Source of the DNA: a virus
Length of the DNA stretch: 64,000 nt
Virus record (IMG/VR): IMGVR_UViG_3300022890_000014
Location: 86,745-150,744 of that record
Direction: 5' to 3' (one strand)
Numbering within the stretch: position 1 is the stretch's first letter; every line of letters begins with the position of its first letter. The notes beneath the pieces are model-generated. The model saw only the letters and a program-made list of their open reading frames with translations, was not told the origin of the DNA and ran no database searches. The translations under genes were made by a program, and so were the position numbers. Of the stretch, positions 610-63,300 are shown in pieces.

Positions 610-667
610 TGTTTGCGTAAGCCTTACGCATGGACTGATATAACTTTTTTAGCATGGAGAATGTCAA

Positions 668-1735
668 ATGATTAGGTCAGAGGTTGTTATTAGTAATTGT
701 TCCGTCAAAGAAAACAAGGGTGGCGGCAAGTGGTATCTTCAAGGCAAGCTAAAACGGGTCGGAGAAGACGTTCTGGACTTCAAGTTCTGGGACTACAGAG
801 ATCCCGAAGATGCTAGTCAAGAGCCAAAAGCAGCGAAAGATGGTTTCTATCTCGTAGAGTTCAAGATTGATCAATGGAAAGGAATAAATCAGGCTGTCAT
901 AAGCGCGATGAAGGAGACTGAGCATCCAAGTCAAGAGCTTAGAAATTGCGCAGTCGTGAAGCCTATAGCAGATATAGACATCGAGGATGTTTTAAAGAGG
1001 CTTTCATTCTACATTTCGTCTATAGAGAATGAGGCGATAAAAGACCTAGTGAAGATGTGTCTTTCTGTGTCAGTTTTTGACTGGGACTCAAAATGGGAGC
1101 CTGAAGATATAGTTGATGTGCTTACCAGCGGTCCATCAAAATTCACAGAAATGTGGGGGGCACGAAGCCCTGGTCATCATTCGTACACCGGCGGGTGGCT
1201 TGTACATACATACGAGGTTCTTGATGGGGCAATGGGAATACTTAGTGCATCAGGCAGGATTTCTGAATTTCACAGATCTGCAACTGCTATTCCTGCTCCA
1301 ATGAAGGATGCAACGATAGCCTCTGCTATCTTACATGACATTGGCAAGTTTTTCGAGTACGATATATCAAGTGGTATGTCCTGTAAGAGATCTGACGTAG
1401 GAGACTTACATTCTGGACATCTATTCTTATCGGTTCGTGTCATAGATAGAGTAATTGATATGATAGACAATCTAAGAAATTCATCAGCAGGCTCATTAAG
1501 AAGTGGCGCAACTGGAGAAGTGATTGAGCATATCATGCATGCGGTAGCTTCGCATCATGGATTGGATGGTAATCCAGAGTCCTCACCAAGAACTATACCT
1601 GCCATATGCCTACACCACGCAGATGCCGCAACCTCGTCCATTACAAAAATCAAAGACAATATCTTTGAAGCCGAAGGAGGAAGAAAGAAACACTTTGGAG
1701 AAATGCTTGTTAAGATGAATGCAGGTTTATATTAA
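668..1735 (+). CDS. YhaM/Cbf1-like OB-fold + HD-domain 3'-5' exonuclease
   Basis: N-terminal OB-like region; HHSYTGGWLVHTYEV, ILHDIGK, ASHHG and LHHAD motifs of the YhaM HD family. Confidence 0.85.
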   Translation: MIRSEVVISNCSVKENKGGGKWYLQGKLKRVGEDVLDFKFWDYRDPEDASQEPKAAKDGFYLVEFKIDQWKGINQAVISAMKETEHPSQELRNCAVVKPIADIDIEDVLKRLSFYISSIENEAIKDLVKMCLSVSVFDWDSKWEPEDIVDVLTSGPSKFTEMWGARSPGHHSYTGGWLVHTYEVLDGAMGILSASGRISEFHRSATAIPAPMKDATIASAILHDIGKFFEYDISSGMSCKRSDVGDLHSGHLFLSVRVIDRVIDMIDNLRNSSAGSLRSGATGEVIEHIMHAVASHHGLDGNPESSPRTIPAICLHHADAATSSITKIKDNIFEAEGGRKKHFGEMLVKMNAGLY

Positions 1736-1758
1736 AATTTTAGAGTGGAGAATACATT

Positions 1759-2475: not shown

Positions 2476-2495
2476 CTATCCCTGGAGTACAGAGA

Positions 2496-2693
2496 ATGCA
2501 ACGAACACTGGATGCCACTGGAATGTTTAGTTTGGTCTCTAGCACATCTGACAAACTGGACAAGCTAATGGAGAAGCATCTTCCAATTAACAGCCAAACA
2601 AGACGGAAGATAGTACTCTCGCCAAAGAGTGTTCCTTCTGGCAGCAAAAACCTTTCGCGTAAGGCTTACGCAGGAAAAGAAAACGGAGAATGA
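2496..2693 (+). CDS. Small hypothetical protein
   Basis: 65-aa ORF with GGAG upstream; contains a palindrome copy (RKAYA). Confidence 0.45.
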   Translation: MQRTLDATGMFSLVSSTSDKLDKLMEKHLPINSQTRRKIVLSPKSVPSGSKNLSRKAYAGKENGE

Positions 2694-2694
2694 T

Positions 2695-3138: not shown

Positions 3139-3146
3139 GAGTTGCC

Positions 3147-4961: not shown

Positions 4962-5025
4962 CTATCTATACTGAATGTAGAAGTATCCTGCTCTATCAAG
5001 GGCAGGTATTTTTTTAGGAAAAACT

Positions 5026-5388: not shown

Positions 5389-5453
5389 TTTGCGGTATAA
5401 GCCTTTTACGTGGAGAAACAAATTAATGCGTAAGTCTTACGCAAGGATGTATC

Positions 5454-5960: not shown

Positions 5961-5961
5961 A

Positions 5962-6648: not shown

Positions 6649-6949
6649 TAGGAGAGTAATAGTGACACCGAATATGGAAATAGATGTAGTCACATCATTA
6701 ACCGCCAGATACTTAAGGGAAGAAGCGGAGGGTAAAAAGCTATGTGGATACGGTTCTATGCTTAATGGAATGGACACTGTGGTTCGCATAGAGCTTGAGG
6801 ATGGATACTTGCACAACCCGTGTATAGTATCTGGAATCGAGGAAGTTCCTGGCGGTTACACATATACAATGGTTCATGCGTTCCGTCCGATAGTATATAG
6901 AAATGTTCAGCCAGGACAGTTCAGGATAATGAAAACGTTTGATGCGTAA
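6638..6949 (+). CDS. Hypothetical protein
   Basis: 103 aa; stop codon TAA lies in the palindrome at 6943. Confidence 0.6.
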   Translation: MQYNRRVIVTPNMEIDVVTSLTARYLREEAEGKKLCGYGSMLNGMDTVVRIELEDGYLHNPCIVSGIEEVPGGYTYTMVHAFRPIVYRNVQPGQFRIMKTFDA

Positions 6950-6970
6950 GCCTTACGCAGGGGAATAGAA

Positions 6971-7420: not shown

Positions 7421-7438
7421 ATACAAGAGGTTGTACAG

Positions 7439-7738: not shown

Positions 7739-7755
7739 ATTAACGGAGAAAGATA

Positions 7756-8266: not shown

Positions 8267-8287
8267 AGCACAAACGGAGAAATAACC

Positions 8288-8506: not shown

Positions 8507-8512
8507 ATACTT

Positions 8513-10321: not shown

Positions 10322-10424
10322 AACTCACCTCTGCGTTACGAACTTTTTTTAGATAAGCGAAGCAGAGTGCTACACGTCTCTATTGGTCTTATACTCATAT
10401 GCGTAAGCCTTACGCAAGTAATAT

Positions 10425-10732: not shown

Positions 10733-10948
10733 ATGGGAAACAAATGGGGCGGTAAAAGAAAAGGTTCTGGCAGACCACTAGGAAGCGTTTCAGGGAATAA
10801 GAAGAAAGAGATAATATCTTTCAGGGTTGATGATGATGTGTACGAGCAATTGTCGGAACTAGGAAAGAAGAAGGGTGTGTCAGAAAACATAGTCTCTAGG
10901 GATATTATAAAATCAACACTAGTTAAGTTCAAGCTTGCTGGTGCGTAA
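10733..10948 (+). CDS. Ribbon-helix-helix (CopG/Arc-like) DNA-binding protein with basic GGKRKGSGRP arm
   Basis: IISFRVDDDVYEQLSELGKKKGVSENIVSRDII is a beta-strand plus two helices; AAGGAG RBS. Confidence 0.75.
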   Translation: MGNKWGGKRKGSGRPLGSVSGNKKKEIISFRVDDDVYEQLSELGKKKGVSENIVSRDIIKSTLVKFKLAGA

Positions 10949-10958
10949 GGCTTACGCA

Positions 10959-11974: not shown

Positions 11975-12095
11975 TATGCGTAAGGCTTACGCACTAGTCG
12001 CTCATTGGTTTTACACTATGTTTATTCCGCAGTTGATAATGCCTAGGGCTTCTTTTGTTAATACTACTATGTCAGTCATGACGGCCTCATGTTTG

Positions 12096-13787: not shown

Positions 13788-13822
13788 GTCTTTTCCTTAT
13801 GCGTAAGGCTTACGCACTAAGA

Positions 13823-15626: not shown

Positions 15627-15684
15627 GATATTTCCTCTGCGTAAGCCTTACGCAATGAAAGGTTTGCCTGATATGTCTTACTCA

Positions 15685-17799: not shown

Positions 17800-17841
17800 T
17801 TTAAAAAAATCCTTCTGCGTAAGGCTTACGCATTATGTCAT

Positions 17842-20800
17842 TTACGTTCTGACAGTCATCAACATTCTGTTGTGAGGCACAGGAGCATCGACATACCATT
17901 GATGCTCAGTTTGGTCTATCTCTGTCTCTGAAACGTCAAGCTTTTCAAGTCGCATTTCGTTGACAAGTTTACCTGCGCGTACATCACTGAACTCTTCACA
18001 GAAAGTGACTACGGCAGAGGCAGTAGTTCTCAACTGAGAGAGAAGCTCATCAGAGATATTATATTTACCTATCCAAACTGAGAATTCTTGACGGATAACT
18101 CTCGTTACATAGTCAATAATCTTAGTGATAGAAAGTTCTTGCTTCTTGATGCTGGAAATATCAGTTGTTAGCTGATGTCGAATATGAGGTGTATCACCTG
18201 AGTCATCCTGATGAATAATCATTACACCACCACCAGCGATAGTGTTTAGCTGCGCTCTTGTGAAATAGTTGTCGGATTTGCCATGAGGAGCACTAGTGAA
18301 GCCAGTGAATCCAAGCTTAGACAAACCTTGTTGTGGAGCTAGCCCAGCAACGAAAGCACCGACTGCAACTCCCCAGTAGTATCCTGGCGCTGTTACGGAG
18401 GCTCCTGCTACATCAAAGACTGACTGATCAGGCCAAACCAAAGTGGTTCGTCTGTCTGCGAATGAGGCAGCATAGTCTCTGATAGCTTCTGCTTGCTCAT
18501 CTTTTGTCTTCGGTTTAACTAACGTATATATCAGTGAGGATAAAACACCAGTAAAGATTGCTGTGAGACCAGTCATTGAGAACTCATCGCCAACCACTGT
18601 TTTCACTATCTCTTCCGACACAACAGTATCGATAACATAGTCACCAGCGATAGCTGTTGGAGAAGTGACTCTTATCACGTCACCAGCGATGAACCCCTTG
18701 GTTACAAAAGTCTCACCAGTAACAGTAAGCTCTCTAAAGTCTCTCTGTACAGAGTAGTCTATAGAGGATTCACTTACCATAGGAGTAAGAGTTTTATCTT
18801 CGAGGCTAAAGGTGTTGTTTCCAGGTGTACTGGAGAACTCCATCTCGAAACCACCAAGATCTTCGGCAGTAGAAGAAACACCTTGTGTAGCCACAGCACC
18901 GAAAGCGGTTGTGTTAGTAAGGATAAGTTCTTCTTGTTTCACAGATTGCACGGTATACGATTGACCTGCGTATGTTCCCGTAAGGATTCTTACAGTTCTA
19001 CCAGCGTCACCGAACCCGATTGTTCCGAAGCCAGCTATTGCAACAGAGCATAGGTTTGTTCCAGCGAACTTCTGTCCCCAGTCTTTGTTTGTAATAATGT
19101 AGTTGTGGCTCGCGTCCAACTCTGCAATTAAGAATGTCTCAGACACATAGTCTTGATCTGCGATTGAGGCAGACACGGCATTTGCGCCAGCAGGCCATAC
19201 GACCAGAAGATTTCCTAGTGTTACTTTTATATCAGAATCGATAGCAGTAATCTCTTGCACATCGATAGCTCCAGTCACATCATCAATGAATCTTAGTTCT
19301 CTTCCGATGTCTCCGAAGCCGAATGTTCCAGCAGCGAAACCACTTAGAGTTTTGGCTCCAACATCTTTAACCCCAACAAGAGCATTTCCTCTGCCAGAAT
19401 ATGACAGTGTATTACTCACCATTACTGTAGTCACGCCGTTGAACTCGCCAGCACCAGCGGCACCAGTTAGTTTAACAACAGAGACGGAGCAACTAGCTGT
19501 AGCATCATTAACAGTGATAGAGGCTACTGTACATGTACTTCCGTCACCAGGAGCAGTAACTATTGTATGAGACTTATTATCAGCAGGAGTAGCAGATCCG
19601 GACACTAGAACCTGAGCGCCGACAAGACCAGTGAATGTACCAGGAACACCTGAATCAACTAAGTTTGTTGCGGCTGTAAGAGCAACAGTACCAGCTATAG
19701 ATCTGTTTAGTCTTGAGGCTGTGACACCTGGGGTTGCGAATACGTCATCGTATCCAATAACAGACACCTGAGACATATTTGGAGTTGTGTATGCGACAGG
19801 AGGAACCACAGTATCATATGCTATATCAACATCAATACTAGAGTAGTCAGTAACATTTAATGCGCTAATCTCAGTAGACATAGCATTAGATGAAATAACA
19901 CCGTCCATTAGTGTGGGAAGCCAAGCAATGCACTTCAGACCTACGGGAGCTACGCCTTCGCTAGCAAGGTATCTGAATGTTCCAGCGGGTCCAGTAAGTC
20001 TGATTGTGTCTAGTGTTCCAGCTAGAGCACTACCAGAGTCAGAAGCAGTAAGACCGAATGTGCAAGAACGGATTCTATTTCCGTATGCTGCAACATAACC
20101 ACGATTTGGTGACACTTCAAGAAGAACTCCAGGATCTTTTATTTTAAGATGCTCAGAGTTATTGACCCCCCAGAAGCCGTCATTAGTAAGAGTACTTCCT
20201 GACGCCTTAACTAAGTCTGTTGAGTAATCAACTGGAAGAGGAGAGACTGTTCCGTCGAAATCGGGGAATTTAACAACGCCTCTACTCCAAAGCCTATTAC
20301 TCTTGTCGTTGAACTCTGCATCGTCGGAAGCTGCAACTTCTGTGACACCATTAATGTCCCATGCTACTGCTGTGTCTTTTGCATCGATAATGCTTTCGAC
20401 AATCAGAGAGGTGTTGATGACAACAATTCTGACTCTATTCCAGTCTTTAGTTGGGTCAGATACGTCTCTGGCATGAGTACTCATCAAAGAGTTGTGACCT
20501 GCGTTCTGCGTAAGGCCTACGAGGACATATGCATCTTCGTCTGCAATGCGTGTAAGCGAGTCGCCAAACCCAAGCTTTGCCATGCTGTCAAATTCATACA
20601 AACCTGACTTCACACCAGCGATAACATCCATGCCGCTAAAATAAATCTTAGAGGTAGTATTTTCTCTTGCTTTGGACAAGGCCATCGCGAGAGGGTTGTA
20701 CTCAGATGTGATACCAATCTTTGTGGCAATCTGTGTGCTTGCTTCGATGTAGCCAGTCTGATTAACCAAGCCAGTCTTAACTGAGCGGTAATTAACCTTG

Positions 20801-21696: not shown

Positions 21697-21734
21697 ATTA
21701 CTTTCTCCGTTTGCGTAAGGCTTACGCAGGCAAA

Positions 21735-22758: not shown

Positions 22759-22799
22759 GTGTGTCTATATACTACACTAGTTTTGAGGCTGCGTAAGGC

Positions 22800-23606
22800 T
22801 TACGCACTGGGGAGAGGTGGTGTTTTTGACTTGTTTGCTCGCTCACTGATTACTTCTTCTATTATTACTGGTGCTTGTCCAAGAGCCATGCCAGCTAGTG
22901 CTCCTACTGGACCAAACATAGATCCAACCATAGTTCCTCCGACTGTACTAACGAGCCTTCCTCTGTTCTGATGGAAGTTTCTAAGGTAAGTTTTTCCAGT
23001 ATCTTCTTCGATTTGAGACTTCTCTTCTCCGTCTGCAACTTGAGACCAAGCAACTCTCTCCTTCTCCATTACATCTTCATCATGTATTTTCTTGGAGAAT
23101 AGTCTAGCTAGACCTCTTGGAATATTAGCTCCACCATATGCAGTAGCTAGCTCGCCATCATCTCTCTTCTTACTGAAGTCTGCTATATGCCCAATCTCAT
23201 GATCAATAACTACTGGATTCATCTTCTTTGGAGCAATGATGTAATCTCCAGTATCACCAGAGAACGCTAAGGCGTTACCACCATTAAGAACAACATTCTC
23301 CATGTATTCTTTAGGTCCGTTGCCCTTGAACTCTTTGTCCATTAGTACACCAACATCTTTGACTGAAGAGACTAGGTTGACTTTACTGTTAGCTTTCAAG
23401 ACTCTCTTCTTTACATTGGTTGCATTTCTACTCATGTGAGCGTCAATGTCTTCCTGTCTAGTTCTATTCTGAGACGAAGAATACACATCGTACAATCCAA
23501 GCCCTGTTAGCCCTAGGCCCACAGCACCTATGCCACCAGCAAGCCATGGATTGATTCCAGCCTGCTTTGTCATGCCGTAGAGTATTCCATTGTATATACT
23601 ATTCAT
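22800..23606 (-). CDS. HExxH zinc-peptidase-like protein with GMTKQA leader and hydrophobic Gly-rich ends
   Basis: VIDHEIGH...EKERVAW; stop codon inside palindrome 22790. Confidence 0.6.
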   Translation of the reverse strand: MNSIYNGILYGMTKQAGINPWLAGGIGAVGLGLTGLGLYDVYSSSQNRTRQEDIDAHMSRNATNVKKRVLKANSKVNLVSSVKDVGVLMDKEFKGNGPKEYMENVVLNGGNALAFSGDTGDYIIAPKKMNPVVIDHEIGHIADFSKKRDDGELATAYGGANIPRGLARLFSKKIHDEDVMEKERVAWSQVADGEEKSQIEEDTGKTYLRNFHQNRGRLVSTVGGTMVGSMFGPVGALAGMALGQAPVIIEEVISERANKSKTPPLPSA

Positions 23607-24570: not shown

Positions 24571-24627
24571 TGCGTAAGCCTTACGCGCTAGCGTTGTTAG
24601 TCTTTTCCTAGGTGATGTCCAGCACCC

Positions 24628-25441: not shown

Positions 25442-25451
25442 TGCGTAAGCC

Positions 25452-25859
25452 TTACGCGTTGTTGAATTTGTCAAACATTTTCTGTGCAGCGTCGAGTGCG
25501 TAGTTCATGTGTAGTTTAGACACCGGAACCTTGTTGCTTATGACATCTGCAATGCTTTTGTAGTACTTGTCAGCATCTTCGACTACTGCATAAGCGACCT
25601 TTCCACCTTCAACATTATACGACAGTTCGCGTATCATTGTCACTTTAGCTTTATTGGACAGGAACCATTTTACTGATTCCGAGGCAGTTTGTCGAGATAT
25701 GATTCCAGGTTCAGCAACATCTTGTTGTAAGTTAATTTCCCGTTCGCTCTGGACTGAGTTAGAACTATCTTCCTTGGTGACTGGTATATCTTTTTTAGAT
25801 GATCTCTGTTCTCGAAGGCAAAGGTTTCTTTGCTTCCAGGCATTAAGTGTGTCTGACAT
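25452..25859 (-). CDS. Hypothetical protein
   Basis: 135 aa; stop codon inside palindrome 25442. Confidence 0.6.
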   Translation of the reverse strand: MSDTLNAWKQRNLCLREQRSSKKDIPVTKEDSSNSVQSEREINLQQDVAEPGIISRQTASESVKWFLSNKAKVTMIRELSYNVEGGKVAYAVVEDADKYYKSIADVISNKVPVSKLHMNYALDAAQKMFDKFNNA

Positions 25860-27129: not shown

Positions 27130-27240
27130 GATTTCACCTCTAGTAATATGTTGATGTTTAGCACAGTAACAGACTTATACCACTAGTTCACTGGTTGCGT
27201 AATGAATATCAAGTAAGCTTACGCGTAAGCCTTACGCAGA

Positions 27241-28806: not shown

Positions 28807-28896
28807 TTATAAAAAAAGATAATTGGGGTTGAACCCCGCGTAAGGCGTGTTGCGTAAGGCTCTTAGTCTTTGCGTAAGCCTTACGCAGCCAACGAA

Positions 28897-31624: not shown

Positions 31625-31739
31625 TCTTTTATTCTCCGATTTATATACAGGCTATGTACATAAATGTTATTGCGTAAGATTCAACACGGAAGTCTTTGCG
31701 TAAGCCTTACGCGACACCGAAATGCCGCGAAATTGTAGA

Positions 31740-32771: not shown

Positions 32772-32833
32772 TTCTTACCTCTCGAATTATTTCTAGTAGA
32801 AATTCTCATTGCGTAAGGCCTACGCACATAAGA

Positions 32834-37842: not shown

Positions 37843-37924
37843 GTTGAATCCTAATAAAAAACAACCCCACTATGAGTACACACAGAGAGGTTAGCTTTTT
37901 CTTTGTATGCGTAAGGCTTACGCA

Positions 37925-40842: not shown

Positions 40843-41067
40843 TTATTTGCTGCTCCCTGAATTGCTTGCGTAAGCCTTACGCACTTCACTATTGTTCATG
40901 TCATTGCCATCAACATCGCAGTGACTACTTTTGGTTTTTTCTCTATTTGTCACACTGCATAAGCCTATGGATGTTCCATTAACGCTTCGTTTTAGTCTAT
41001 CGCAAAGATCACAGCGAAGTGCAGTTGTCTTTTTCATATTAAAATCTCCTATTAAAGATAGTACCAT
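40843..41067 (-). CDS. Small Cys4 protein
   Basis: CDLC...C...C; contains a palindrome copy (RKAYA). Confidence 0.5.
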   Translation of the reverse strand: MVLSLIGDFNMKKTTALRCDLCDRLKRSVNGTSIGLCSVTNREKTKSSHCDVDGNDMNNSEVRKAYASNSGSSK

Positions 41068-43872: not shown

Positions 43873-43950
43873 TAGTTTATTCCTATTGGTATAAGTTACT
43901 TGAGTTAACAATATACACCATGCGTAAGCCTTACGCAACCAGGAGATGTC

Positions 43951-44805
43951 ATGGCTACACCTAAAGTCGGAAGAATTAACATAAAGTTTTTTGTTACAAG
44001 AGAAACCAAGTTAGCTATACACGTATTGGCAGCGAAGACGGAGATGACTCCATTCACCTACCTATCCAACCTGCTAAACACATATTCATACTTGTGTGAA
44101 GATGTAGTAGTTAATACGAAGGCAAACAAGCCGTCATGTAAAATGCGAGCAATGATAATGGAAAAAGAACTACTCTACCTAGTTAAGAGAGTTGGAATAG
44201 GAGGAATTTTTGATAAGTGGATGTCTGGACTAATAATGAAAAAGATGTCTGACTCATTTGGAGATCCGGCAATAATAAACTGCGCATGTGGATGCTTAAA
44301 GCCACTTCTCTTCATCCATCCATCATATGGACATGCAAGAATATCACACATGGGTCATATGGGCGGAATGGCATCTAGTGGGAATAGACCAGTCCAAGAG
44401 GCTATATATGCCTATATGTCTGAGAACAGAAAAGAGGTGACTCCTATAGAGGTTGCTGAATCCATGGAATTATCGAAGAGTAACACTTCAAAATTAATGG
44501 GCATCATGGATCGAGACGGAGTAATCAAAAGAATAGTCACAGGATTCTACGTTACAAAGAATCACTTCATTGAAGACTACATGGATGGATGGAGGGGACT
44601 AAGAATGAATCACGAGAAGGTTATGAGTTCTATAGAGAGGATGGCTAAGTTTTGCGGATATGGGCGTTCAAAAACTGTGTCTCAAGATACCGGAATAGAA
44701 AGAAAAGAAGTTGTGCAGATCTTAGACTATCTGTATAAGAAAGGCTTCACCTACAGAGTTAGGTATGGTGGATACGCCCCAATAAAACTCTTGAACAAAA
44801 AGTAA
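43951..44805 (+). CDS. Multi-domain DNA-binding protein (RHH-like, CxCGC, two winged-HTH)
   Basis: VTPIEVAESMELSKSNTSKLMGIMDRDGVIKRIVTGFY and SKTVSQDTGIERKEVVQILDYLYKKGFTYRVRYGGY. Confidence 0.7.
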   Translation: MATPKVGRINIKFFVTRETKLAIHVLAAKTEMTPFTYLSNLLNTYSYLCEDVVVNTKANKPSCKMRAMIMEKELLYLVKRVGIGGIFDKWMSGLIMKKMSDSFGDPAIINCACGCLKPLLFIHPSYGHARISHMGHMGGMASSGNRPVQEAIYAYMSENRKEVTPIEVAESMELSKSNTSKLMGIMDRDGVIKRIVTGFYVTKNHFIEDYMDGWRGLRMNHEKVMSSIERMAKFCGYGRSKTVSQDTGIERKEVVQILDYLYKKGFTYRVRYGGYAPIKLLNKK

Positions 44806-45823: not shown

Positions 45824-45909
45824 CACGTAAGGCTTACGCATTAGAGTTTCCTTTCAGGGTATAAGTATTATAGTTCTAAACACAATCATACTCTAGAAAG
45901 GAATTACTC

Positions 45910-46801: not shown

Positions 46802-47015
46802 GCCTTTCTCCTATATTATTAAGTCTAATATTATCTCACGTTATTTTGTATTCGTCCACATGCATAAGGCTTACGTAATTGGTATAAGAATAGTAGAGAG
46901 GAAAATCCAGCCTCTTTATACCATAGTGGTATTTCTCGACTGGTTGTCTGCTCTGGGAATTCTCCCTGATTAGACATTCTGCGTTATGCAGTAAAATTAA
47001 AAGAAGGAGCTTGCT

Positions 47016-47552: not shown

Positions 47553-47621
47553 AGCATGCGTAAGCCTTACGCAATTGGTATAAGCAGAATACACAGTGTA
47601 CTACAAATGAGGTTTGCCACT

Positions 47622-48566: not shown

Positions 48567-48615
48567 TCAACACGGAACTAACTGCGTAAGCCTTACGCAA
48601 AGGTTTTTTTTAGAC

Positions 48616-49684: not shown

Positions 49685-49716
49685 TATAACTAACCCTTTG
49701 CTTCTTTGCGTAAGCC

Positions 49717-50250
49717 TTACGCTTTTGTTGCTCCCCAGTTCACATCTTCGTGACCAAAGCAGTCCTTAATATATTTCTCAGTTTCACCGCTCTCTAACAT
49801 CCATTTGACACAGCTAGGACATACACCATAACCACAATCTTGATTCCACCACTGCTGCCACGTCCCTGCATCGCAATCACAACAAGCACAGCGCAAACCT
49901 ACTTTTTTTACCATAGGATCATAGATGATATTTCTATCTGTATTTTCAACAGACCATTTTTTGGATTTTGCTTCACCTATGTATTCCAGTCCTTCATCAA
50001 CAGTAAAGTGTGCAATATTTTCACCCTCCTCTTCTTCTACGACACGTATAGCTTGAAGGGCAGTTCTTGCATTCTGAATAGGCACAAAGACAGAGTTTAC
50101 ATGAATCTCTTGCACTCTGACATAGAACCCAGCATTACCTTTTATTTCAGCACAGATAGGGCAGAATATGTCTCCTTGTAGTTTTCTTATATTCTTTGTC
50201 TCACCACCACACCCAGCACAGTTACAGTCAACGCTACTCATCTCAATCAC
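49717..50250 (-). CDS. Multi-Zn-ribbon hypothetical protein
   Basis: CAGC..CPIC; CACC..WWNQDCGYGVCPSC; stop codon in palindrome. Confidence 0.65.
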   Translation of the reverse strand: MIEMSSVDCNCAGCGGETKNIRKLQGDIFCPICAEIKGNAGFYVRVQEIHVNSVFVPIQNARTALQAIRVVEEEEGENIAHFTVDEGLEYIGEAKSKKWSVENTDRNIIYDPMVKKVGLRCACCDCDAGTWQQWWNQDCGYGVCPSCVKWMLESGETEKYIKDCFGHEDVNWGATKA

Positions 50251-50327
50251 CTCTAGGTTAGTTGTGTAAAAAATCGCGCAACCTAAGCTGCACGACTTCT
50301 TACTTATCTTTAGCTTACGCGTAAGGC

Positions 50328-51440
50328 TTACGCGAGTAGTTCGCCAGCCTTAGATTCCAAGGCTTCTCTTCTGTCTGGAGCTTTGGACTTTGCAACAAGA
50401 CTGAATGCATTACTCAAACGCCATTTGTTGTCACCACCAGAACTACTTGGTAGCAGTTCGATGTTACTAGTGTTGTTATAGATAGTCTTGATTTCCGAGC
50501 ACTCCTCCTTAGTTATATTGCTTCTGATAGCACCCTTGAGGTACTTTTCAACATCAACCTTTGCTTCATGGGCTTCAGCGATCTTTGCGATGCTGGCGTC
50601 AATGGTTCTTGGCTGAAGAGCATTGGCAATGAAGTCTCTTGCTTTGAGGGAGATTGTTTTAGAGTTGGCCTCAATAGTATCCTTTGCCCATTCTATGTTA
50701 ACAGGAAGCTGCTTGCCCAGGTGTACGTTGCGCATGATGACATCGCGTGTGGCTAGGTTGCTACACCATAGGCGAACGATGAAGTTCTTTATTTCGAGGG
50801 CACCTTGTCCGAAGTCCGAGTTCGAGATCTGCAACCCATACATTACAACCTCATTCTTCACAGGCTCGAATACTTCTTTGACGACTAGGCGAATCCACCA
50901 CTTGAGGTCAGAGAAGTATGCACCGACTACAACAGCGTTGCTTTTAGAGAGAGTCTCAAGAAGATTGCTGAGAATGGAAACAGTATCGACAATCATGTAT
51001 TTGTCGGAGAGAGCAGCCATCACTGTATTATCGATGTTTCTGATAAGCAGGCGTTCGGTATTGATCTTCTGGTAGATTTCCTGAAGGTTTCGACACAGAA
51101 GCTCTTTACCCCAGTCACCTTGTGCGAAGAAGTGATTGACATTGCTCTTGCTGAGAATACCAGTTTTTGTTGCAATCTGAGTGACTGCATTCTGGTGCAT
51201 CATTCTTTTCTTGCCATCGCCTACATCGATAAGAAGACTGTCTCCTTCGTATCCGAAATCCATCTTATTGGTATTAGCAAGCATATCTCTTGGAATGGAA
51301 CTCATGACCATATCGATAAGCTCTTCGCCCTCATCTGCACCTTTTGAGATAATGTCTTCAAAGGACGCCCGTGTTTTCTGGCTGGCATTGTCCCATTCTA
51401 CTGAGTATGGGCGGCTGGAATCATTAGTTTGCATTTGCAT
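50328..51440 (-). CDS. DUF932/DUF945-like protein
   Basis: ALSDKY, GLQISNSDFGQGAL...RLWCSN, RNVHLG; start at 51440 after GGAG; stop codon in palindrome. Confidence 0.75.
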   Translation of the reverse strand: MQMQTNDSSRPYSVEWDNASQKTRASFEDIISKGADEGEELIDMVMSSIPRDMLANTNKMDFGYEGDSLLIDVGDGKKRMMHQNAVTQIATKTGILSKSNVNHFFAQGDWGKELLCRNLQEIYQKINTERLLIRNIDNTVMAALSDKYMIVDTVSILSNLLETLSKSNAVVVGAYFSDLKWWIRLVVKEVFEPVKNEVVMYGLQISNSDFGQGALEIKNFIVRLWCSNLATRDVIMRNVHLGKQLPVNIEWAKDTIEANSKTISLKARDFIANALQPRTIDASIAKIAEAHEAKVDVEKYLKGAIRSNITKEECSEIKTIYNNTSNIELLPSSSGGDNKWRLSNAFSLVAKSKAPDRREALESKAGELLA

Positions 51441-52362: not shown

Positions 52363-52435
52363 TGCGTAAGAAGTATCAGGTAAGCATTGCTGCGTAAGGA
52401 GTATCAGGTAAGCATTGCTGCGTAAGGCTTATGCA
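52363..52435. repeat. 28-bp tandem duplication built on palindrome half-sites
   Basis: TGCGTAAGRAGTATCAGGTAAGCATTGC twice (52363, 52391), then TGCGTAAGGCTTATGCA (52419). Confidence 0.9.
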
Positions 52436-53963: not shown

Positions 53964-53981
53964 TTCAACCTCATTTGATGG

Positions 53982-54462: not shown

Positions 54463-54482
54463 CTTTTGTTTATGCGTAAGCC

Positions 54483-55142
54483 TTACGCAATAATGTCAAT
54501 ACTATCTCCTCCACACAAAGGACAACTAAGTCTTCCGTAACCTGAGTCAAAAGCAGACTTTGATTCTTTAAGCCCACACACGCACTTCCATTTCTCTTCC
54601 GACTCAGCAGGCTTCTCATCAAAGACTGACGCTGGTACTTTAGGAACAGGAACTCCTGCTTCCGATAGAGCCTTAGCTGAATTATTTAGAAAACTATCAC
54701 GCAGAACATTATCTATTCTGATTCCAGTTTCCATAATTCTGCATCTATCCGCATGTAACTCTTCTGCTGTTTTTGCAACACAAGCATCGCATACATGGTC
54801 GTATTTTGGGCCACTTGGTCCACTACAGTAGATGCATATATGAGGATTGGAATTCTTTTCCTTATTCTCTTCCTTAACTTTAGCTGGCCTGCCAGTCTTG
54901 CGGGTAGAGTCAACGAACACGAATCCTCTCTTTTTTACAACACTAAGCTCCAGGTGGTCGATTATCTCTGATAAGATAGCTCTAATACTCATTCCTGGTT
55001 CATTAGAAAAAGCAGAATCAGGTATCTCACTGAAAGACATAGACGAATTATCCTTGATTTTATCCTTGTTCAATATTTGTGGTAGCATCTGCTTTACCAC
55101 TTCTCTCACTGACGATAGCGTAGGCTTTGTTCTTGCTGTCAT
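54483..55142 (-). CDS. Hypothetical protein with two Zn-ribbons
   Basis: CIYC..CDAC; CVCG..CPLCG; stop codon in palindrome. Confidence 0.65.
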   Translation of the reverse strand: MTARTKPTLSSVREVVKQMLPQILNKDKIKDNSSMSFSEIPDSAFSNEPGMSIRAILSEIIDHLELSVVKKRGFVFVDSTRKTGRPAKVKEENKEKNSNPHICIYCSGPSGPKYDHVCDACVAKTAEELHADRCRIMETGIRIDNVLRDSFLNNSAKALSEAGVPVPKVPASVFDEKPAESEEKWKCVCGLKESKSAFDSGYGRLSCPLCGGDSIDIIA

Positions 55143-56298: not shown

Positions 56299-56363
56299 TA
56301 TAAAAATATTAGATGATATAATTTACTAAACTTTACTGCGTAAGGCTTACGCAAACGGAGAAA

Positions 56364-58568
56364 TTGATGAGTTCACTAACACCTATCTTCATAAATACAG
56401 GCGAAGCCCGTATAAATACAACGCCTGTTCCGGACTCAGTAGCGGAATGGGATGACTTTCTTCCAAATGAGTTACTAAGGCAGCATCCATCTTTATCTAA
56501 TAGACCTAGCAAGGTTGTGTATATAGATATAGATGAGGAGCAGTCCGACGGAAGAGGATCTATTCTAATTACATCTAATCAAGTTCCTATCATGCATGTT
56601 CCATTTGTTATTCGTTCTGGTCATCTCCATCCAATGGATGTGTACTACGAAGAAGGCAAAGAAGATGAGCCTAAGCCACTAACTAGAGACAGAATTAGAA
56701 AAGTACTATTCCACTCTAGAATCATAGAAGGTCTAGCTCCTAGAACTAATAGAGGAGAACTATCCGATACAGCATACAAATCTATACCTCCTTCTGGTAA
56801 TAATAGCTGGGGTTCTGATGGAAGCTTTGGTAAGCAAGCAGGATTCGACTTAGACAAAGCAGTGCGACGTTGTATCGAAAACATCCATGTCAATACTAGC
56901 GTTCTTGATTCGGCAGTAAAAACTGCATCTGCTGAGATGTACTCGATTTATGAACGAGACATGAAGACTGTTGAGGGAACTAATGCTATTCATTTGATGC
57001 ACAAACGAGGATACACAAACGCAATAGAGAAAGTTATCCTTGGACAAAAGAATGCACAGCCTTTCAGTAAGATTGCATCTGTAAACAAAGACCAGATATA
57101 CCCAGAGACAATAAGACTAAAGAAAGTCCATCCAGGTGCATACGATACGTTTGTTAGCTGGTCTGGCAAGAACACACCTATGTCTAAACTCTCGGCCCTT
57201 ACTGTAAGAGAAGCCAAGGAAGTCGTTCAAAGTATAGACGCTAACCCATCAGTTCATATAAACGATGCGGAACACCAAGGCGAAAAGATAATCTCTGCTA
57301 TACGGCATGAGCCAACTTCTAGTAACGTAAATCTTACAGAAGACCTAACTCCAGAGAAATGGATTAAGGCTACTAAGGAAGACAACTGCAAAGTTTCAGT
57401 GTTCAATAAAGCCTCTGGAGCATCGCTAAAAGGTAGACTGTTTGGAAACGTAGTGTCTCCCTCTGGTGGATCGACTGGCAAGAAGCTCTTTGTAATGGGT
57501 GGCGACAAGTACTCTTATCAGGCAGGAATGGTAGTTGAGAAGATGGACGGAGAGCAATTTGACTCTCCAGTTGTAGACTTAGCAACGGAAACTCCTGAAG
57601 TCGGACAGATGGGAACATTCTTATCTGGCGACGACAAGAGCATTATGACTCCGTTCAAAATCGTAGCACTCTCTCATAAGTGGGGAAGTGATACGTTCAC
57701 TGTTGAATTTGACGGTGGAGGCAGAGCTTTGATTTCCGTGTCTGGTATGGCAATCAAGCCTCTTCGAGCAAGCAAAGCTGGAATGTCAGATAGATCTATT
57801 ACTAGAATGTCCTCAGAGCATAACGAAAACTTTGGCTTTTCTAAAGATCCAGCGTTCTTAATCCCTGAGTCGTGGCAGTATATACGGCTTGGAAGTTCAA
57901 TTGATGTTGAGTCTGAAGTCAAAGAAGCAGAAAAAACAGCCGCTATTGGCATGATTGATTCTGACCCAATCTCTGTTAAGTGCTTGTCTGTAGGAAACGA
58001 CTGTGATGAGTTCAAGATTGTGTCTAGTAAGTTGAACCAAGAGAAGGTAGCTGGCGGCTGGGGATACAATACAAACAATCTATCCAAGATTGAAGCGTTC
58101 CATTGCCTGCTTTCTGTAGGAGTTCCTGGTGATGTTGCAAACAGATCTATCAAGACAGCAGAAGCAAAAGGCAGGGCGACAATAAATGGAGTGCGTAAGG
58201 CTTACGCACCGAACTGGAGTGTCAAACTTGCAGTAGCAAAGATGGAAAATGCCGCACCAGTCATAAAAGAGATTCGTGGACTAGTAGAGAAAGAGAATAT
58301 CGTAAAACTAGCGTCTCAGATGCAGGACGATGGAGTATCCTCTAGTGTATTAGCAACAGGACTAATTGGACCAGAGAACTACGAAGAGTTTATAGAGAAC
58401 ATCCCAATCCTTGAGAAAGCAATATCCTTCATAGCGACACTACTTCTTGCTAAGAGACTCGATCAAGAACTTGAGTTCGACGAAAGATCTCTGTCGTCAG
58501 CAATGAGATTGATGGATACTGTAGTTCACAAGCTCGAAAAACTAAGAGCGGTTTCTCAACCCTCATGA
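56364..58568 (+). CDS. Large K-x-A-rich putative head/core protein
   Basis: GKQAG, VKTAS, SKIAS, EKTAA, EKVAG, IKTAE, VKLAS. Confidence 0.65.
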   Translation: MMSSLTPIFINTGEARINTTPVPDSVAEWDDFLPNELLRQHPSLSNRPSKVVYIDIDEEQSDGRGSILITSNQVPIMHVPFVIRSGHLHPMDVYYEEGKEDEPKPLTRDRIRKVLFHSRIIEGLAPRTNRGELSDTAYKSIPPSGNNSWGSDGSFGKQAGFDLDKAVRRCIENIHVNTSVLDSAVKTASAEMYSIYERDMKTVEGTNAIHLMHKRGYTNAIEKVILGQKNAQPFSKIASVNKDQIYPETIRLKKVHPGAYDTFVSWSGKNTPMSKLSALTVREAKEVVQSIDANPSVHINDAEHQGEKIISAIRHEPTSSNVNLTEDLTPEKWIKATKEDNCKVSVFNKASGASLKGRLFGNVVSPSGGSTGKKLFVMGGDKYSYQAGMVVEKMDGEQFDSPVVDLATETPEVGQMGTFLSGDDKSIMTPFKIVALSHKWGSDTFTVEFDGGGRALISVSGMAIKPLRASKAGMSDRSITRMSSEHNENFGFSKDPAFLIPESWQYIRLGSSIDVESEVKEAEKTAAIGMIDSDPISVKCLSVGNDCDEFKIVSSKLNQEKVAGGWGYNTNNLSKIEAFHCLLSVGVPGDVANRSIKTAEAKGRATINGVRKAYAPNWSVKLAVAKMENAAPVIKEIRGLVEKENIVKLASQMQDDGVSSSVLATGLIGPENYEEFIENIPILEKAISFIATLLLAKRLDQELEFDERSLSSAMRLMDTVVHKLEKLRAVSQPS

Positions 58569-59507: not shown

Positions 59508-60188
59508 ATGAAGAGATCAGAAAAGAGAGATCCTAAGTTGGTAAAGGTGGCATTCATGCAGTACATGAAAGACAATGGTAGAAATCCTCTAACCATATTT
59601 ATACTGGAGGGGGGAGGGAAGATTGGTTGCTATACTAGCCCTGCTGGTGAAATGCTATCCAAATTCTGTGATGAGAATAAGATTTGGCATAATGATAGGT
59701 CTGGAATCATAAATGAATTATTCGGTGTCAACTCTAAGAGTGAGAAGTTGCGTAAGGCTTACGCAGAGCAAGAAGGTAAGGTCGAGCCAGAAGAGGCACC
59801 TGTCGAGCACACTCCTCCAGAAAGAGAAGATGTTCTGTCTATGTTTAAGGCTATTAGTGAAGACATACTAAGAACTGAAAACTTAATAAAAGGAATGCGT
59901 TATCATATAGAGATGATGGGCGGTGATGATCCAGTAGGAATAGACCGCGAAAGATTAAGAGCCACATACGTCAATAACATGTCTAGAGACATTGTTTGTT
60001 TTATAGAGGCTCTTAGACAGGACTACAAACAACTGTTTATCGAGGCATTCTGTGCTGGTGACTCTAGTGTTCACGAAGAAGCTGTGAAGCTAGCAGAAGA
60101 TCGTACTAGTAAGAAGCTAATTAATCACTCTATCAGAAAATTCTTAGACGAGAACAAATACGATGGACCCAAACAAAGAAAGGCGTAG
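59508..60188 (+). CDS. Hypothetical protein
   Basis: GGGGAG RBS; GGTATAAG upstream; contains a palindrome copy. Confidence 0.65.
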   Translation: MKRSEKRDPKLVKVAFMQYMKDNGRNPLTIFILEGGGKIGCYTSPAGEMLSKFCDENKIWHNDRSGIINELFGVNSKSEKLRKAYAEQEGKVEPEEAPVEHTPPEREDVLSMFKAISEDILRTENLIKGMRYHIEMMGGDDPVGIDRERLRATYVNNMSRDIVCFIEALRQDYKQLFIEAFCAGDSSVHEEAVKLAEDRTSKKLINHSIRKFLDENKYDGPKQRKA

Positions 60189-60398
60189 AAAATGGCGTTT
60201 GAATTTGACCACAAAAAGTCTACAACATGGGCAGTGCTGAAATATGCAAGGAAAGAATGATTAGGATGAACTACTACACAGCAGAAGAGCTTGGTAGACC
60301 AGTCGAAAAGAAAGTTCGCAGAGGGTATAAGCGGAGTAGAAGGAAAAGATATTATGCGAAGTAAAACATTCGGCAAATCATATTTCTAGGAGAACAAA

Positions 60399-63300
60399 TT
60401 GAAACAATTCGTACACCTACACATGCACACAGACTATTCTTTATTAGATGGAGTCAACACAGTCAATGGAGCAATAGAAAAAGCGTACAGAATGGGGAAT
60501 CCAGCTATTGCCATAACAGACCACGGCAACATGTATGGTGCTATCGAGTTCTACAAGCAGGCGATTAAGACAGGGATAAAGCCTATAGTTGGATGTGAAG
60601 TGTATGTTGCTCCTATATCTATGAAAGATAAAGACCCCAAGCAGAGATACTACCATCTTACCCTGCTGGCTCAAAATATAGACGGGTATAGGAACCTGTG
60701 TAAGATGTTAACAATAGCTAACGCAGAAGGGTTTTACTATAAGCCAAGGATCGATCTAGACCTATTGCAGCAAAATTCAAAAGGAATAATAGCTCTATCT
60801 GGCTGCATGTCTGGTGAAGTACCAAGAAAGATACTACGCACTGAGTATGATGAAGCAAAAGATAATGCTCTAAGAATGGCTAGAATGATGCCAGGAAGAT
60901 ACTTTCTTGAGATTCAAAAGAATGGTATCGAAGAGCAAGAGCACATCAATAGAATTCTTACTGAAATATCCAACGACATCAAAGTTCCACTTGTAGCCAC
61001 AAATGATGTTCATTATCTAGACGAAGGCGGGCACGAAGATCAAGACGTACTTATTTGCATAGGTACAAAAAGCTGCGTCCATGATAGCAATAGAATGCAG
61101 ATTCACACGGATACTCTATGGTTGAAGTCTCCACAAGAGATGCGCAGTAAGTTTGACAAGTATAAAGGTGCTTGTGATATAACGCTTGATATAGCTAACA
61201 TGTGCAATCTTGAGATACCTATGGGGAAGACTAGCTTCCCAGTGGTAAAAATAGACAAGAAGAAATACTTCTCAAGTACAGAGATGTTTGCCAAGCTAGC
61301 TACTGGTGGTTTGGCTCAGATATTTGAAGACAAGTTTATCACTGGTAAAGATAGGAGAGTGTACAAAGATAGACTTGAAGAAGAGATGGGCATCATAATA
61401 AAGATGGGGTTCGTGGATTACTTCATCATAGTCTGGGACTTCATAAAATGGGCAAAAGACCACGATATACCAGTCGGTCCAGGTCGCGGTAGTGCTGCTG
61501 GAAGTTTAGTTGCATATGCGCTAGGAATCACTGCTATCGATCCAATGCCTTACGACTTACTCTTCGAGAGGTTCTTGAACCCGTCTAGATTATCATGGCC
61601 TGATATTGATGTGGACTTCTGCGAGAATGGAAGAGATAAAGTCATTGAGTATGTATCAAACAAATATGCAGTAGAAGGAGGTCCAGCAGTAGCACAGATA
61701 GCTACGTTCGGTAAGCTCAAGGCTAAGGCTGTTATTCGTGACGTACTAAGAGCGCATGATGTACCTCTAGATATTGCAGATGAACTTGCGAAACTTATTC
61801 CTGTGAGACCAGGAATCTCTCTGAAAGAAGCTATAGAGGAAGAGCCTAAGATAGAGAAGTTGGTAGCCAAGCACAATATTGAGGATGTGTTCAAGTATTG
61901 CCATAGACTTGAAAATATTAGTAAGAGTGTTGGTGTTCATGCTGCTGGTGTAGTTATTTCTGATGGTCGCCCACTGTTCCACTACTTGCCCACACAAATA
62001 CTGAAAGGAAAGGTTGCAACTCAGTATGACATGAAATGTACTGAGGATGTAGGACTAATCAAGTTTGACTTCCTTGGGTTGAAAAACCTCACCACAATCA
62101 AGAGATGTATCGATAGCGTAAGGCTTACGCGTGGAATAAAGATCGATATTTCTAAGATACCTCTGGACTGCAAGAGAACCTACAAGATGCTACAGTCTGG
62201 CGACTCATCTGGAGTATTCCAGCTTGAGTCAGGTGGAATGAGCGATGTCATGGTTAAGCTGAGACCAACAGAGCTTGAAGATATTATCGCTCTAGTAGCA
62301 CTATATAGACCTGGACCACTACAGGGTGGAATGGTGGACTCGTTCATCAATAGAAAACATGGCAGAGAAGCTGTAGAGTATGAGATACCTGAACTAGAGG
62401 AGATCCTGGCAAGAACATACGGTGTATGTGTGTACCAAGAGCAAGTCATGCAGATTGCAGCTAAAATCTCTGGATACTCTATGGCCGAAGCTGACTTCCT
62501 TAGAAAAGCTATGGGAAAGAAGAAGCCAGAAGAGATGGAAGAGCAGAGAGTTAGATTTGTATCAGGTGGTGTGGAAAAAGGCTTCACTAGAAGGAAAGTG
62601 GAGTTCCTATTCGAGATGTTGGAGAAATTCGCTGGCTACGGATTTAATAAATCACATTCGGTAGCATATGGCCTAATTGCGTACCAGACAGCATGGCTAA
62701 AAGCTAATTTCTATCCTGAGTACATGGCGGCACTTATGACAGGGGACCACAACGACTCAGATAAGATACGTAACTATTGCGATAATTGTAATAGAAACAA
62801 CGTGGAGGTTAAGCCTCCTAGTATAAACACCTCTGGCTATGGCTTTGCTGTATCTAAGAGTAATATCTTGTTCGGCCTGTCTGCAATCAAGGGTGTTGGT
62901 GACTCCGCTATTGATGCAATCCTAGAAGAGAGAAAAAACGGAGAGTTTGAATCAGTCTATGACTTCTTTGAAAGGATACGTTTATCAAAGGTTAACAAGG
63001 CTGTCATAGAGTCCTTGACTAAGAGCGGTGCATTCCATATCTATGATAGGAACCGCAAGAGTATCTTCGATATGATACCTAAGCTGATTGAGTATGGCAA
63101 ACTTTTTCAGTCAAGGGAAGGTATGGGTCAGATGCTCATGTTTGACGTGGACAATAGACCTCACATTGATATACAAGATGAGTTCATAAAGACAGAGATA
63201 CTTGGGTTCGAGAAAGACCTACTTGGAATGTATGTCAGCACTCATCCGATGGAACCCCTCGAATCTATTACAAAACTCATAAGCAATTCCGCTAGTGTAA

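Follow-up and report, generated by a model that had tools for sequence, protein, structure and literature searches.

Proteins of the ParB fold are known in several roles, as centromere binders (ParB), as selectors of the division site (Noc) and as plasmid regulators (KorB, VirB). Among these, KorB of plasmid RK2 is a ParB-family cytidine triphosphate (CTP) clamp that loads at scattered palindromic operators, from which it represses promoters at distances of up to 1.5 kb (PMC11790492). In phages, the Cluster O mycobacteriophage Corndog carries 34 invariant 17-bp dyad repeats, TGTTCGG-NNN-CCGAACA, in 70 kb (about one per 2 kb), which are unoriented, lie in coding sequence in about one third of cases and were called of unknown function; the stoperators of Cluster A and the start-associated sequences of Cluster K are asymmetric and oriented with transcription (PMC4351075). 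Herein, a dispersed 17-bp palindrome was analyzed in the IMG/VR virus record IMGVR_UViG_3300022890_000014, a viral contig of 150,744 bp with an estimated completeness of 82%. The window, i.e., the whole stretch of 64,000 nucleotides examined, comprises bases 86745-150744 of this contig. The palindromes form an evenly spaced lattice, which we lean towards interpreting as loading sites of a phage-encoded ParB/Noc/KorB-like protein.

The palindrome lattice

The element is a 17-bp palindrome, TGCGTAAG-N-CTTACGCA, in which two arms of eight bases surround one central base (8-1-8). Rfam and tRNA scans of the window gave no matches. Copies were counted by the 15-bp core GCGTAAG-N-CTTACGC with up to two mismatches, and expectations were obtained from shuffles. 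By this measure the window holds 36 copies, 31 of them perfect, against a shuffle expectation of 0.12, and 22 copies are exact over all 17 bases. This agrees with the roughly 36 copies counted in the original prediction, and their positions, from 615 to 62130, are unchanged. Scanning of the full contig extended the lattice beyond the window to 85 copies over 150.7 kb (74 perfect, seven with one mismatch and four with two), where approximately none are expected by chance. Among the perfect 15-mers of the window, the central base is C in 15, G in 15 and T in one, so the 15:15 balance noted earlier recurs with a single T added, and in the contig 84 of the 85 copies have G or C at the center, this T being the only exception. 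The near-invariant element is limited to its 17 bp, with no conserved element in the flanks. Half-sites are not enriched overall (14 versus 13 expected), and 11 of the 14 are intergenic.

Neighboring copies in the window lie 1757 bp apart on average (minimum 542, maximum 3457), with a coefficient of variation (CV) of 0.43, and the regular spacing described in the original prediction is thereby upheld. For the 85 copies of the contig, the mean gap is 1767 bp, the CV 0.45 and the largest gap 3693 bp, whereas under uniform placement the CV is about 0.99 and the largest gap averages about 8.8 kb (p<2e-4). Three gaps fall below 500 bp, two of them belonging to tandem pairs 27-28 bp apart and one measuring 471 bp. 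Every base of the contig lies within about 1.9 kb of some copy. The regularity also withstands permutation among intergenic regions: the intergenic copies alone have a CV of 0.66, compared with 0.92 when they are permuted among 108 usable intergenic slots (p ~0.001).

Furthermore, the in-gene copies (n=17) fill gaps otherwise left by long genes. With the intergenic copies held fixed, none of 5000 random placements of the in-gene copies in coding sequence brought the CV down to 0.45 or the largest gap down to 3693 bp, the means under this null being 0.71 and 7.3 kb. In-gene copies, one or more each, occupy all intergenic gaps longer than 3.65 kb and are absent from the four gaps of 3.0-3.65 kb. 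Three copies lie in the gene for a 2520-aa RNA polymerase, and the genes for proteins of 1440, 1206, 1154 and 1140 aa, the last being the DnaE gene of the window, carry one each near mid-gene; in the 1284- and 1075-aa genes the palindromes are degenerate. The in-gene copies are read as RK[AP]YA in ten cases and as VSLT-type peptides in seven. Both open frames are thus in use, which places the constraint on the DNA and not on the peptide, and a conserved peptide as the selected trait was ruled out on this ground. Altogether, the lattice is real, strongly non-random and selected for density. The copies in the window, none of which is assigned a strand, are as follows, together with one protein-coding gene that is taken up below.

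614..630: perfect 17-mer, intergenic, 38 nt upstream of plus-strand gene 668-1735 (HD-domain protein)
2656..2672: perfect 15-mer, intergenic, 23 nt upstream of plus-strand gene 2695-3138
5427..5443: the sole central T; 11 nt upstream of plus-strand gene 5454-5960 (VRR-NUC)
6943..6959: own TAA is the stop of gene 6662-6949; next plus-strand gene downstream
10400..10416: 14 nt upstream of a minus-strand GTATAAG (promoter-associated class); extra half-site close by
10942..10958: TAA stops gene 10733-10948; ATG of gene 10959-11285 follows 1 nt after
11977..11993: between the convergent ends of 11303-11974 (plus) and 12096-12884 (minus); no start codon near
13800..13816: 13 nt upstream of minus-strand gene 12894-13787
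15638..15654: 12 nt upstream of minus-strand gene 14739-15626
17816..17832: 17 nt upstream of minus-strand gene 17104-17799
20507..20523: two mismatches, in frame in the 1284-aa gene 17842-21696 (minus); fills a 3.9-kb intergenic gap
21712..21728: 16 nt upstream of the same 1284-aa minus-strand gene 17842-21696
22790..22806: TAA stops gene 22800-23606 (minus); 47 nt upstream of gene 22438-22743
24571..24587: 1 nt upstream of the ATG of minus-strand gene 23599-24570
25442..25458: between 24628-25335 and 25452-25859 (minus); ATG 1 nt after; overlaps a doubtful 45-aa open reading frame
27222..27238: intergenic; overlapping extra half-site; about 50 nt upstream of GTATAAG
28871..28887: intergenic; two more half-sites at 27 and 41 bp
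30951..30967: in frame (VSLT) in the 286-aa gene 30458-31318 (minus)
31697..31713: intergenic, 73 nt upstream of minus-strand gene 31334-31624; half-site at 33 bp
32810..32826: one mismatch; 39 nt upstream of minus-strand gene 32496-32771
34861..34877: in frame (RKPYA) at relative position 0.58 of the 1154-aa gene 33412-36876 (minus); fills a 5.1-kb gap
37908..37924: intergenic, 66 nt upstream of minus-strand gene 36880-37842
40867..40883: 25 nt upstream of minus-strand gene 39745-40842
43921..43937: divergent region between terminase 41962-43872 (minus) and double winged-helix gene 43951-44805 (plus); 40 nt downstream of GTATAAG
45824..45840: one mismatch; center 27 nt upstream of GTATAAG
46861..46877: two mismatches; in a palindrome-ATTG-GTATAAG composite
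47557..47573: after a terminator-like hairpin with T-run; in a palindrome-ATTG-GTATAAG composite
48583..48599: 17 nt upstream of plus-strand gene 48616-48861
49707..49723: TAA stops gene 49717-50241 (minus); 23 nt upstream of gene 49436-49684
50318..50334: TAA stops gene 50328-51440 (minus); overlapping half-site
52419..52435: one mismatch, two half-sites; between SSB gene 51518-52276 (minus) and gene 52436-52810
54473..54489: TAA stops gene 54483-55142 (minus); 23 nt upstream of gene 54178-54450
56337..56353: 14 nt upstream of the 733-aa plus-strand gene 56367-58568
58192..58208: in frame (RKAYA) in the 733-aa gene 56367-58568
59749..59765: in frame (RKAYA) in the 226-aa gene 59508-60188 (plus)
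62115..62131: in frame, halfway (0.50) along the DnaE-type Pol III alpha gene 60399-63821 (plus)
43951..44805, plus strand: 284-aa protein with two weak winged-helix (MarR/TrmB-like) Pfam matches, all below cut-off; alternative candidate reader of the palindrome

At 10942-10975 and 24553-24587 of the window, two genes share their start sequence directly after the palindrome (GCA-ATGACTACATT), which suggests paralogous N-termini or a duplicated junction.

Position relative to genes, transcripts and promoters

Gene calling on the contig gave 161 genes covering 91% of it, and 68 of the 85 palindrome centers lie in the 9% of non-coding DNA (binomial p=2e-55). A gene start follows within 100 nt in 62 cases; the distance from the end of the palindrome to the start codon is 10-17 nt in 26 of these and no more than 50 nt in 50. 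The TAA inside the palindrome doubles as the stop codon of the upstream gene 17 times. The copies are wedged into the minimal space between a stop codon and the next Shine-Dalgarno sequence, and this explains their apparent association with start codons. About 65% of the intergenic regions of at least 21 bp hold a palindrome, and two palindromes lie between convergent gene ends. Five of the eight divergent, promoter-bearing intergenic regions lack a copy, and the palindrome was rejected as the promoter proper on this basis.

The center of the palindrome shows no link to transcription. Read on the sense strand, it is C in 36 copies, G in 25 and T in one (C versus G, p=0.2), and pooling with three relatives whose genes all run one way gives a C:G ratio of 50:36 (p=0.16), consistent with the earlier claim that center orientation is independent of transcription direction. 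A central G:C pair in either orientation is expected of symmetric double-strand recognition. In addition, positions +1 and -1 are complementary in every lineage, although they could not pair in a hairpin with a 3-nt loop. As RNA, the palindrome would fold into a 7-bp stem with such a loop at a modest -5.9 kcal/mol, and TTTT occurs within 10 nt on either side in only nine of 85 copies; an intrinsic terminator was rejected for the lack of T-runs. In sense RNA, the six degenerate copies contain a mismatch in four cases and a G-U wobble in two, i.e., without preference for RNA-compatible changes. Single outer-base deviations affect the gene-distal base in 13 of 16 cases and the gene-proximal base in three (p=0.02), an asymmetry that leaves open a minor effect at the RNA level or of ribosome-binding-site context. 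Known classes of repeat were also considered. The oriented asymmetry of stoperators or start-associated sequences was not seen, the dyad being perfect and the center 36 C to 25 G. A repetitive extragenic palindromic element (REP) or bacterial interspersed mosaic element (BIME), i.e., an imperfect, strictly extragenic and often clustered palindrome of 20-40 bp spread by a RAYT transposase, does not fit 17 near-invariant bp, 17 copies within genes and under-dispersed spacing, no search having been aimed at a RAYT gene, and a parS-type centromere with few copies clustered close to the origin or beside parAB does not describe 85 copies spread evenly over 150 kb.

A promoter-like -10 element, (G)GTATAAG (GGTATAAG), has about 33 intergenic occurrences, which precede gene starts by 30-80 nt and show no clear -35 element; examples in the window are at 10387-10393, 45860-45866, 46883-46889 and 47579-47585. 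For about 19 of them a palindrome is found no more than 80 bp away, and the offsets recur. Twelve palindromes lie upstream of such elements. The palindrome center lies 11-27 nt upstream of the element in ten cases, and in five there is a composite TTACGCA-ATTG-GTATAAG that puts the center at about -13/-14; it lies about 40 nt downstream in four and about 22 nt downstream in two. These arrangements are repeated in the relatives L081, L082 and L084. Part of the lattice is placed to affect transcription initiation, and most palindromes are distant from any -10-like element. The original prediction had the palindromes organize the phage DNA rather than regulate individual genes. The features of the lattice point to a need for density beyond gene-by-gene control, and "rather than" proved too strong in view of the -10-like elements with a nearby copy. 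Beside these elements, a motif TTTTTTAGC(A/C) recurs after terminator-like hairpins; both it and (G)GTATAAG are common to L081, L082, L084 and L085, and TTTTTAGC is common to the RNA polymerase relative G001. The two contig ends (340-384 and 150560-150606, the latter at 63816-63862 of the window) are near-identical over about 45 nt ending in GTATAAG, which could be a promoter region present twice or could hint at terminal redundancy.

A candidate reader and its relatives

The candidate reader is a 544-aa protein encoded at 81986-83620 of the contig, 3.1 kb upstream of the window, with a palindrome 22 nt before its start codon. A phmmer search of the PDB matched it to Thermus Spo0J (1vz0, E=1.8e-6) over both the GxxRxxA box and the helix-turn-helix (HTH). 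In the ParB N-domain, DGHRRFTA aligns to GERRYRA of Spo0J, and DGHRR is invariant in nine homologues; residues ~185-215 align to the HTH and recognition helix of Spo0J, with helices at 190-196 and 203-220 in the model. An AlphaFold model built from the nine homologues (predicted local distance difference test, 82) was matched by Foldseek to Noc 7nfu (the best match), ParB 7bnr, 6sdk and 6t1f, Spo0J and KorB 8qa9 (E 2e-5 to 4e-4, probability 1.0), the matches spanning constructs of the N-domain plus the DNA-binding domain. The protein also has an insert of about 65 aa, forming two helices (coiled coil), in the N-domain, and its C-terminal 170 aa form long helices rich in lysine and glutamate. 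A gene for 75-99 aa always lies directly upstream of the ParB-like gene, often overlapping it (84 aa at contig 81700-81954, with counterparts in L081-L087). It had no Pfam match, and its product may be a partner of the ParB-like protein, for which a KorA-like role is a guess. A link to ParB-dependent thymine dioxygenases was set aside, as those ParBs are described without a DNA-binding domain (PMC13229309) and no search was aimed at a dioxygenase here.

An exhaustive HMMER search recovered eight full-length homologues of the 544-aa protein with 28-32% identity, and DNA was available for six. A word-indexed protein search matched only the query itself, searches for related loci with the ParB-like protein, two homologues and alignments gave no relatives, and an alignment of the primase-helicase found distant P-loop matches in metagenomes and none in viral contigs. 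Near-identical genomes from other samples differ at 0-38 positions per 15-22 kb, too few for testing selection on the sites. When the relatives were scanned, five lineages proved to carry 8-1-8 palindromes with changed arms (S denotes G or C):

L082: TGCATGAG-S-CTCATGCA, 13 copies in 19.7 kb; CV 0.51, p=0.009; the MCM and Gp3-like genes contain some of them; a pair at 27 bp resembles those of the phage studied here
L084: RGCATAAG-S-CTTATGCY, five copies in 7.8 kb
L083: GCATGCG-S-CGCATGC, two copies in 3.3 kb
L087: GGTGTAAG-S-CTTACACY (GTGTAAG-S), two copies in 5.6 kb
L081: ACGTAAG-S-CTTACGT with loose ends, seven copies in 20.8 kb

With the present phage there are six lattice lineages, all encoding a syntenic orphan protein of 490-630 aa with the ParB/Noc/KorB fold and an HTH. 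The common gene order is primase-helicase, Gp3-like gene, small gene and ParB-like gene, then kinase, PD-(D/E)XK, HD and UvrD genes. The 8-1-8 layout, T at -4, G at -1 and the central S are constant over the lineages, and the arms differ. In-gene copies occupy differing places in orthologues (relative positions 0.39, 0.20 and 0.57 in MCM) and therefore arose independently. The ParB-like gene is accompanied by the lattice in six of seven lineages, a palindrome lies directly upstream of it in five of these six, and the recognition-helix residues group with the site: KRST/SFST with CGTAAG, SRD[HT]IR with CATG[AC]G and SK[GS]HV with [CT][AG]TAAG. Within the shared module, no gene follows the presence of the lattice better than the ParB-like gene, and two complete genomes that share only the RNA polymerase (G002 and G003) have neither the ParB-like protein nor a palindrome lattice. 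Outside the phage, the 17-mer was found as single copies in three viral contigs only, and in 596 Gb of prokaryotic genomes (185,579 species) it has 68 single occurrences against about 69 expected, never in multiple copies. A host-encoded reader with its own genomic sites is thus unlikely among the sampled species, and the element was likewise rejected as a host-protein site or mobile repeat.

Several features were observed in these relatives beside the lattice. G002 (IMGVR_UViG_3300031760_000002, 176.8 kb) contains an asymmetric 17-mer, CCAACACGTTCGGCAGC, about 16 times, which may be a promoter or regulatory motif of its own. In G001 (IMGVR_UViG_3300014838_000749), a 37.8-kb fragment, the even palindrome ATTAACGTTAAT occurs in ten dispersed copies, one in the RNA polymerase region, and its outer arms vary with complementarity retained (up to 26 bp). 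In the lattice-free lineage L085, an IS605 OrfB/Cas12f-like (TnpB-type) gene and an HNH gene lie inside the replication module (L085:14739-15839).

No close cultured phage was found for the present contig. Pfam identified a fused beta-beta' multisubunit-type RNA polymerase with a LAGLIDADG intein, a weak sigma-like protein, a replication set of PriL-MCM primase-helicase, DnaE-type Pol III alpha, SSB and UvrD helicase, and further a thymidylate kinase, PD-(D/E)XK, VRR-NUC and HD proteins and a GpA-type terminase. The RNA polymerase, a single chain of 2520 aa with its LAGLIDADG intein-like domain, is encoded at contig 2278-9840 on the minus strand, outside the window. An element of about 265 bp is present in two inverted copies, 85% identical and 61 kb apart, each in a large non-coding region (window 48942-49206, i.e., contig 135686-135950, and contig 74059-74310). 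In each copy an AT-rich stretch comes after direct repeats, AAAACTAATACA-GGGGT twice, and the pair looks like two replication origins. One of them immediately precedes the PriL-MCM gene, and around it (contig 71.5-79.5 kb) all four palindromes are degenerate. Several unrelated proteins begin with a common leader, M-S-[IV]-Y-x-G-I-x-x-G (contig minus-strand starts 13336, 14872 and 19591), which may be a shared targeting or propeptide signal.

Proposed function, rival explanations and known systems

On balance, we favor the explanation that the palindromes are loading sites of the phage's ParB/Noc/KorB-like protein, akin to parS, OB and Noc-binding sites (NBS), and dense enough to cover the whole genome. 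Dimers of the 544-aa protein would bind or load at each palindrome through the HTH and then slide or spread along about 1-2 kb of adjoining DNA, as ParB, Noc and KorB do. Selection would keep a site at least every ~3.7 kb, so that no base is farther than about 1.9 kb from one and coverage extends over the entire phage chromosome, and where long genes offer no intergenic room, sites would be written in frame into coding sequence. At the subset of sites with fixed offsets from the -10-like element, the same protein probably also modulates transcription, as KorB does. The coverage might serve to organize, mark or protect phage DNA, or to control transcription globally. We infer the link between protein and site, the sliding or spreading and the purpose of the coverage from the combined evidence above. 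Of the original prediction that a dimeric protein binds at regular intervals, the symmetric, under-dispersed and gap-filling lattice points to the dimeric DNA-binding protein; binding itself and a role in organizing, protecting or ejecting the DNA are at present predictions.

Several observations weigh against this explanation. The agreement between recognition helix and site covers only six lineages and may reflect shared ancestry. The L085/L088 lineage (29.7 kb read) keeps the ParB-like gene, the synteny and the GGTATAAG and TTTTTTAGC motifs and has no recurrent palindrome, and more distant phage proteins with ParB_N and HTH, on two prophage-like contigs, are without a lattice. The Pfam ParB_N match of the 544-aa protein, at E=0.063, falls below the cut-off. 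The CTPase motifs are altered, GERR to GHRR (invariant H129) and ENLQRE to LGMQQE (an invariant G165 in place of the N that KorB and ParB require for closing the clamp), and judged from these residues CTP hydrolysis and clamp closure by the candidate are uncertain. A ParA ATPase (PF13614, PF01656) is absent from the 150.7-kb contig, with positive controls, and as that contig is 82% complete, other DNA-binding proteins may lie in the missing part.

The palindromes could alternatively be operators of another dimeric phage regulator, such as the winged-helix protein at 43951-44805 or one not yet seen, acting mainly as a global transcription switch or roadblock in the manner of stoperators, though symmetric, and the ParB-like protein would be unrelated to them. 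The mostly intergenic position, the proximity of a palindrome to some 19 of the 33 -10-like elements, the lattice-free L085/L088 lineage with its ParB-like gene and the palindrome directly in front of the winged-helix gene are all compatible with such operators. However, operators would not be expected to fill gaps inside genes or to obey a 3.7-kb ceiling, five of eight divergent promoter-bearing regions have none, most palindromes are far from -10-like elements, and the winged-helix matches all stay below the Pfam cut-offs, no PDB relative of this 284-aa protein having been found. We regard this account as unlikely. It is far harder still to credit a selfish or neutral repeat of the REP type or of the miniature inverted-repeat transposable element (MITE) type, or a set of host-protein binding sites. 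High copy number and a mostly extragenic location recall REP elements, but the unit is only 17 bp without conserved flanks, its copies are under-dispersed and not clustered, they stand in frame in essential genes, and the arms change in concert over lineages; no other viral contig holds multiple copies, and prokaryotic genomes hold chance single ones.

Two further explanations appear improbable to about the same degree. The element might act as an RNA hairpin in 5' leaders and long transcripts, where an RNA-binding protein would read it for stability, processing, translation or polymerase processivity. Nearly the same hairpin forms in either transcription direction at -5.9 kcal/mol, the copies crowd before start codons (26 of 62 ending 10-17 nt and 50 of 62 within 50 nt before), and mismatches of the outer bases are rarer on the gene-proximal side than on the distal side (three versus 13, p=0.02). 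Yet the distance to start codons is accounted for by wedging, with the palindrome's TAA used as stop in 17 cases; the loop base has no orientation bias, the complementary +1/-1 pair could not form in the hairpin, degenerate copies (four mismatches, two wobbles) show no RNA-compatible preference, copies also occur between convergent genes and upstream of promoters, and processing sites within the RNA polymerase and DNA polymerase genes would be costly. Alternatively, the sites might serve a regularly spaced DNA transaction, i.e., lagging-strand priming by PriL-MCM, hot spots of recombination or nicking, or cruciform targets. Okazaki fragments are of a size comparable to the mean spacing of about 1.8 kb and the 3.7-kb ceiling, a palindrome works on either strand, and the phage encodes PriL-MCM, DnaE, SSB, UvrD, PD-(D/E)XK and VRR-NUC. 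Against this, the lattice-free L085 has the same primase-helicase, nuclease and helicase genes, the fixed offsets from promoter elements are left unexplained, and to our knowledge there is no precedent for a 17-bp palindromic priming signal at such density.

Beyond the proposed loading sites, a broader picture is possible, though we hold it only tentatively. A large lytic phage family may have turned a ParB-type protein into a system that coats or marks the whole chromosome, with a mandatory spacing of at most ~3.7 kb and sites in RNA polymerase, DNA polymerase and tail genes; sliding or spreading ParB-like dimers would cover all phage DNA without interruption, and this cover would distinguish, compact, protect or globally regulate the DNA, and the recognition helix would co-evolve with some 90 sites per genome. 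If true, a lytic-type phage with about 85 sites under a hard spacing ceiling that constrains essential proteins would represent a new use of the ParB fold, site density itself could be a selected trait, and the lattice would give a natural read-out of the protein's reach, at ~1.9 kb. The six natural site variants offer material for studying a concerted, genome-wide change of specificity. The lattice may also explain the Cluster O 17-bp repeats, open since 2015, whose genomes likewise encode an orphan ParB-like protein.

Stoperators and start-associated sequences resemble the present element as many short, conserved intergenic sites, the latter just upstream of gene starts, whereas the site described here is symmetric, unoriented, density-constrained and present in genes as well. 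Chromosomal ParB-parS shares with the present pair an N-domain arginine box and HTH, a palindrome of 16 versus 17 bp and a site adjoining the parB-like gene. However, chromosomal parS sites are few, near the origin and served by a ParA partner, compared with ~85 dispersed sites, no ParA, a ~65-aa coiled-coil insert and a lysine/glutamate-rich tail here. Noc of Bacillus subtilis is, as here, an orphan ParB paralogue without ParA that has tens of palindromes over a replicon. The NBS is an even palindrome of 14 bp; there are ~70 of them in 4.2 Mb, none near the terminus, and Noc blocks division by tethering DNA to the membrane. In contrast to Noc and NBS, a phage is the replicon here, its sites are about 30 times denser and their spacing has a ceiling.

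KorB and its operator OB, an odd-length palindrome with a central G or C, are similar in joining a ParB fold to an HTH with no segregation role required, and in having dispersed palindromes, some directly upstream of promoters and others far from them. The offsets of palindromes from -10-like elements here match the arrangement of KorB operators, and the reach by sliding that is reported for KorB, ~1.5 kb, is similar in magnitude to the half-gap ceiling. On RK2 there are about a dozen OB sites in 60 kb, as against ~85 in 150 kb, and even spacing or in-gene filling is unreported for RK2. KorB works with KorA and IncC, whereas no ParA was found here, and the nucleotide-binding motifs of the 544-aa protein differ (GHRR, and no ENLQRE). 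In Corndog, the architecture is 7-3-7 and not 8-1-8, and the sites, crowded at the right end, are unevenly spaced with a gap CV of 1.07 and a largest gap of 9.2 kb. Corndog gp90 is an orphan ParB_N protein of 502 aa (Pfam ParB_N 2.7e-6) that aligns to the present family over N-domain and HTH (hhalign 87%, E=4e-6); a literature search found no paper linking gp90 to the repeats. As in the phage described here, Corndog is non-temperate and carries tens of invariant 17-bp dyads that are unoriented and lie partly in genes.

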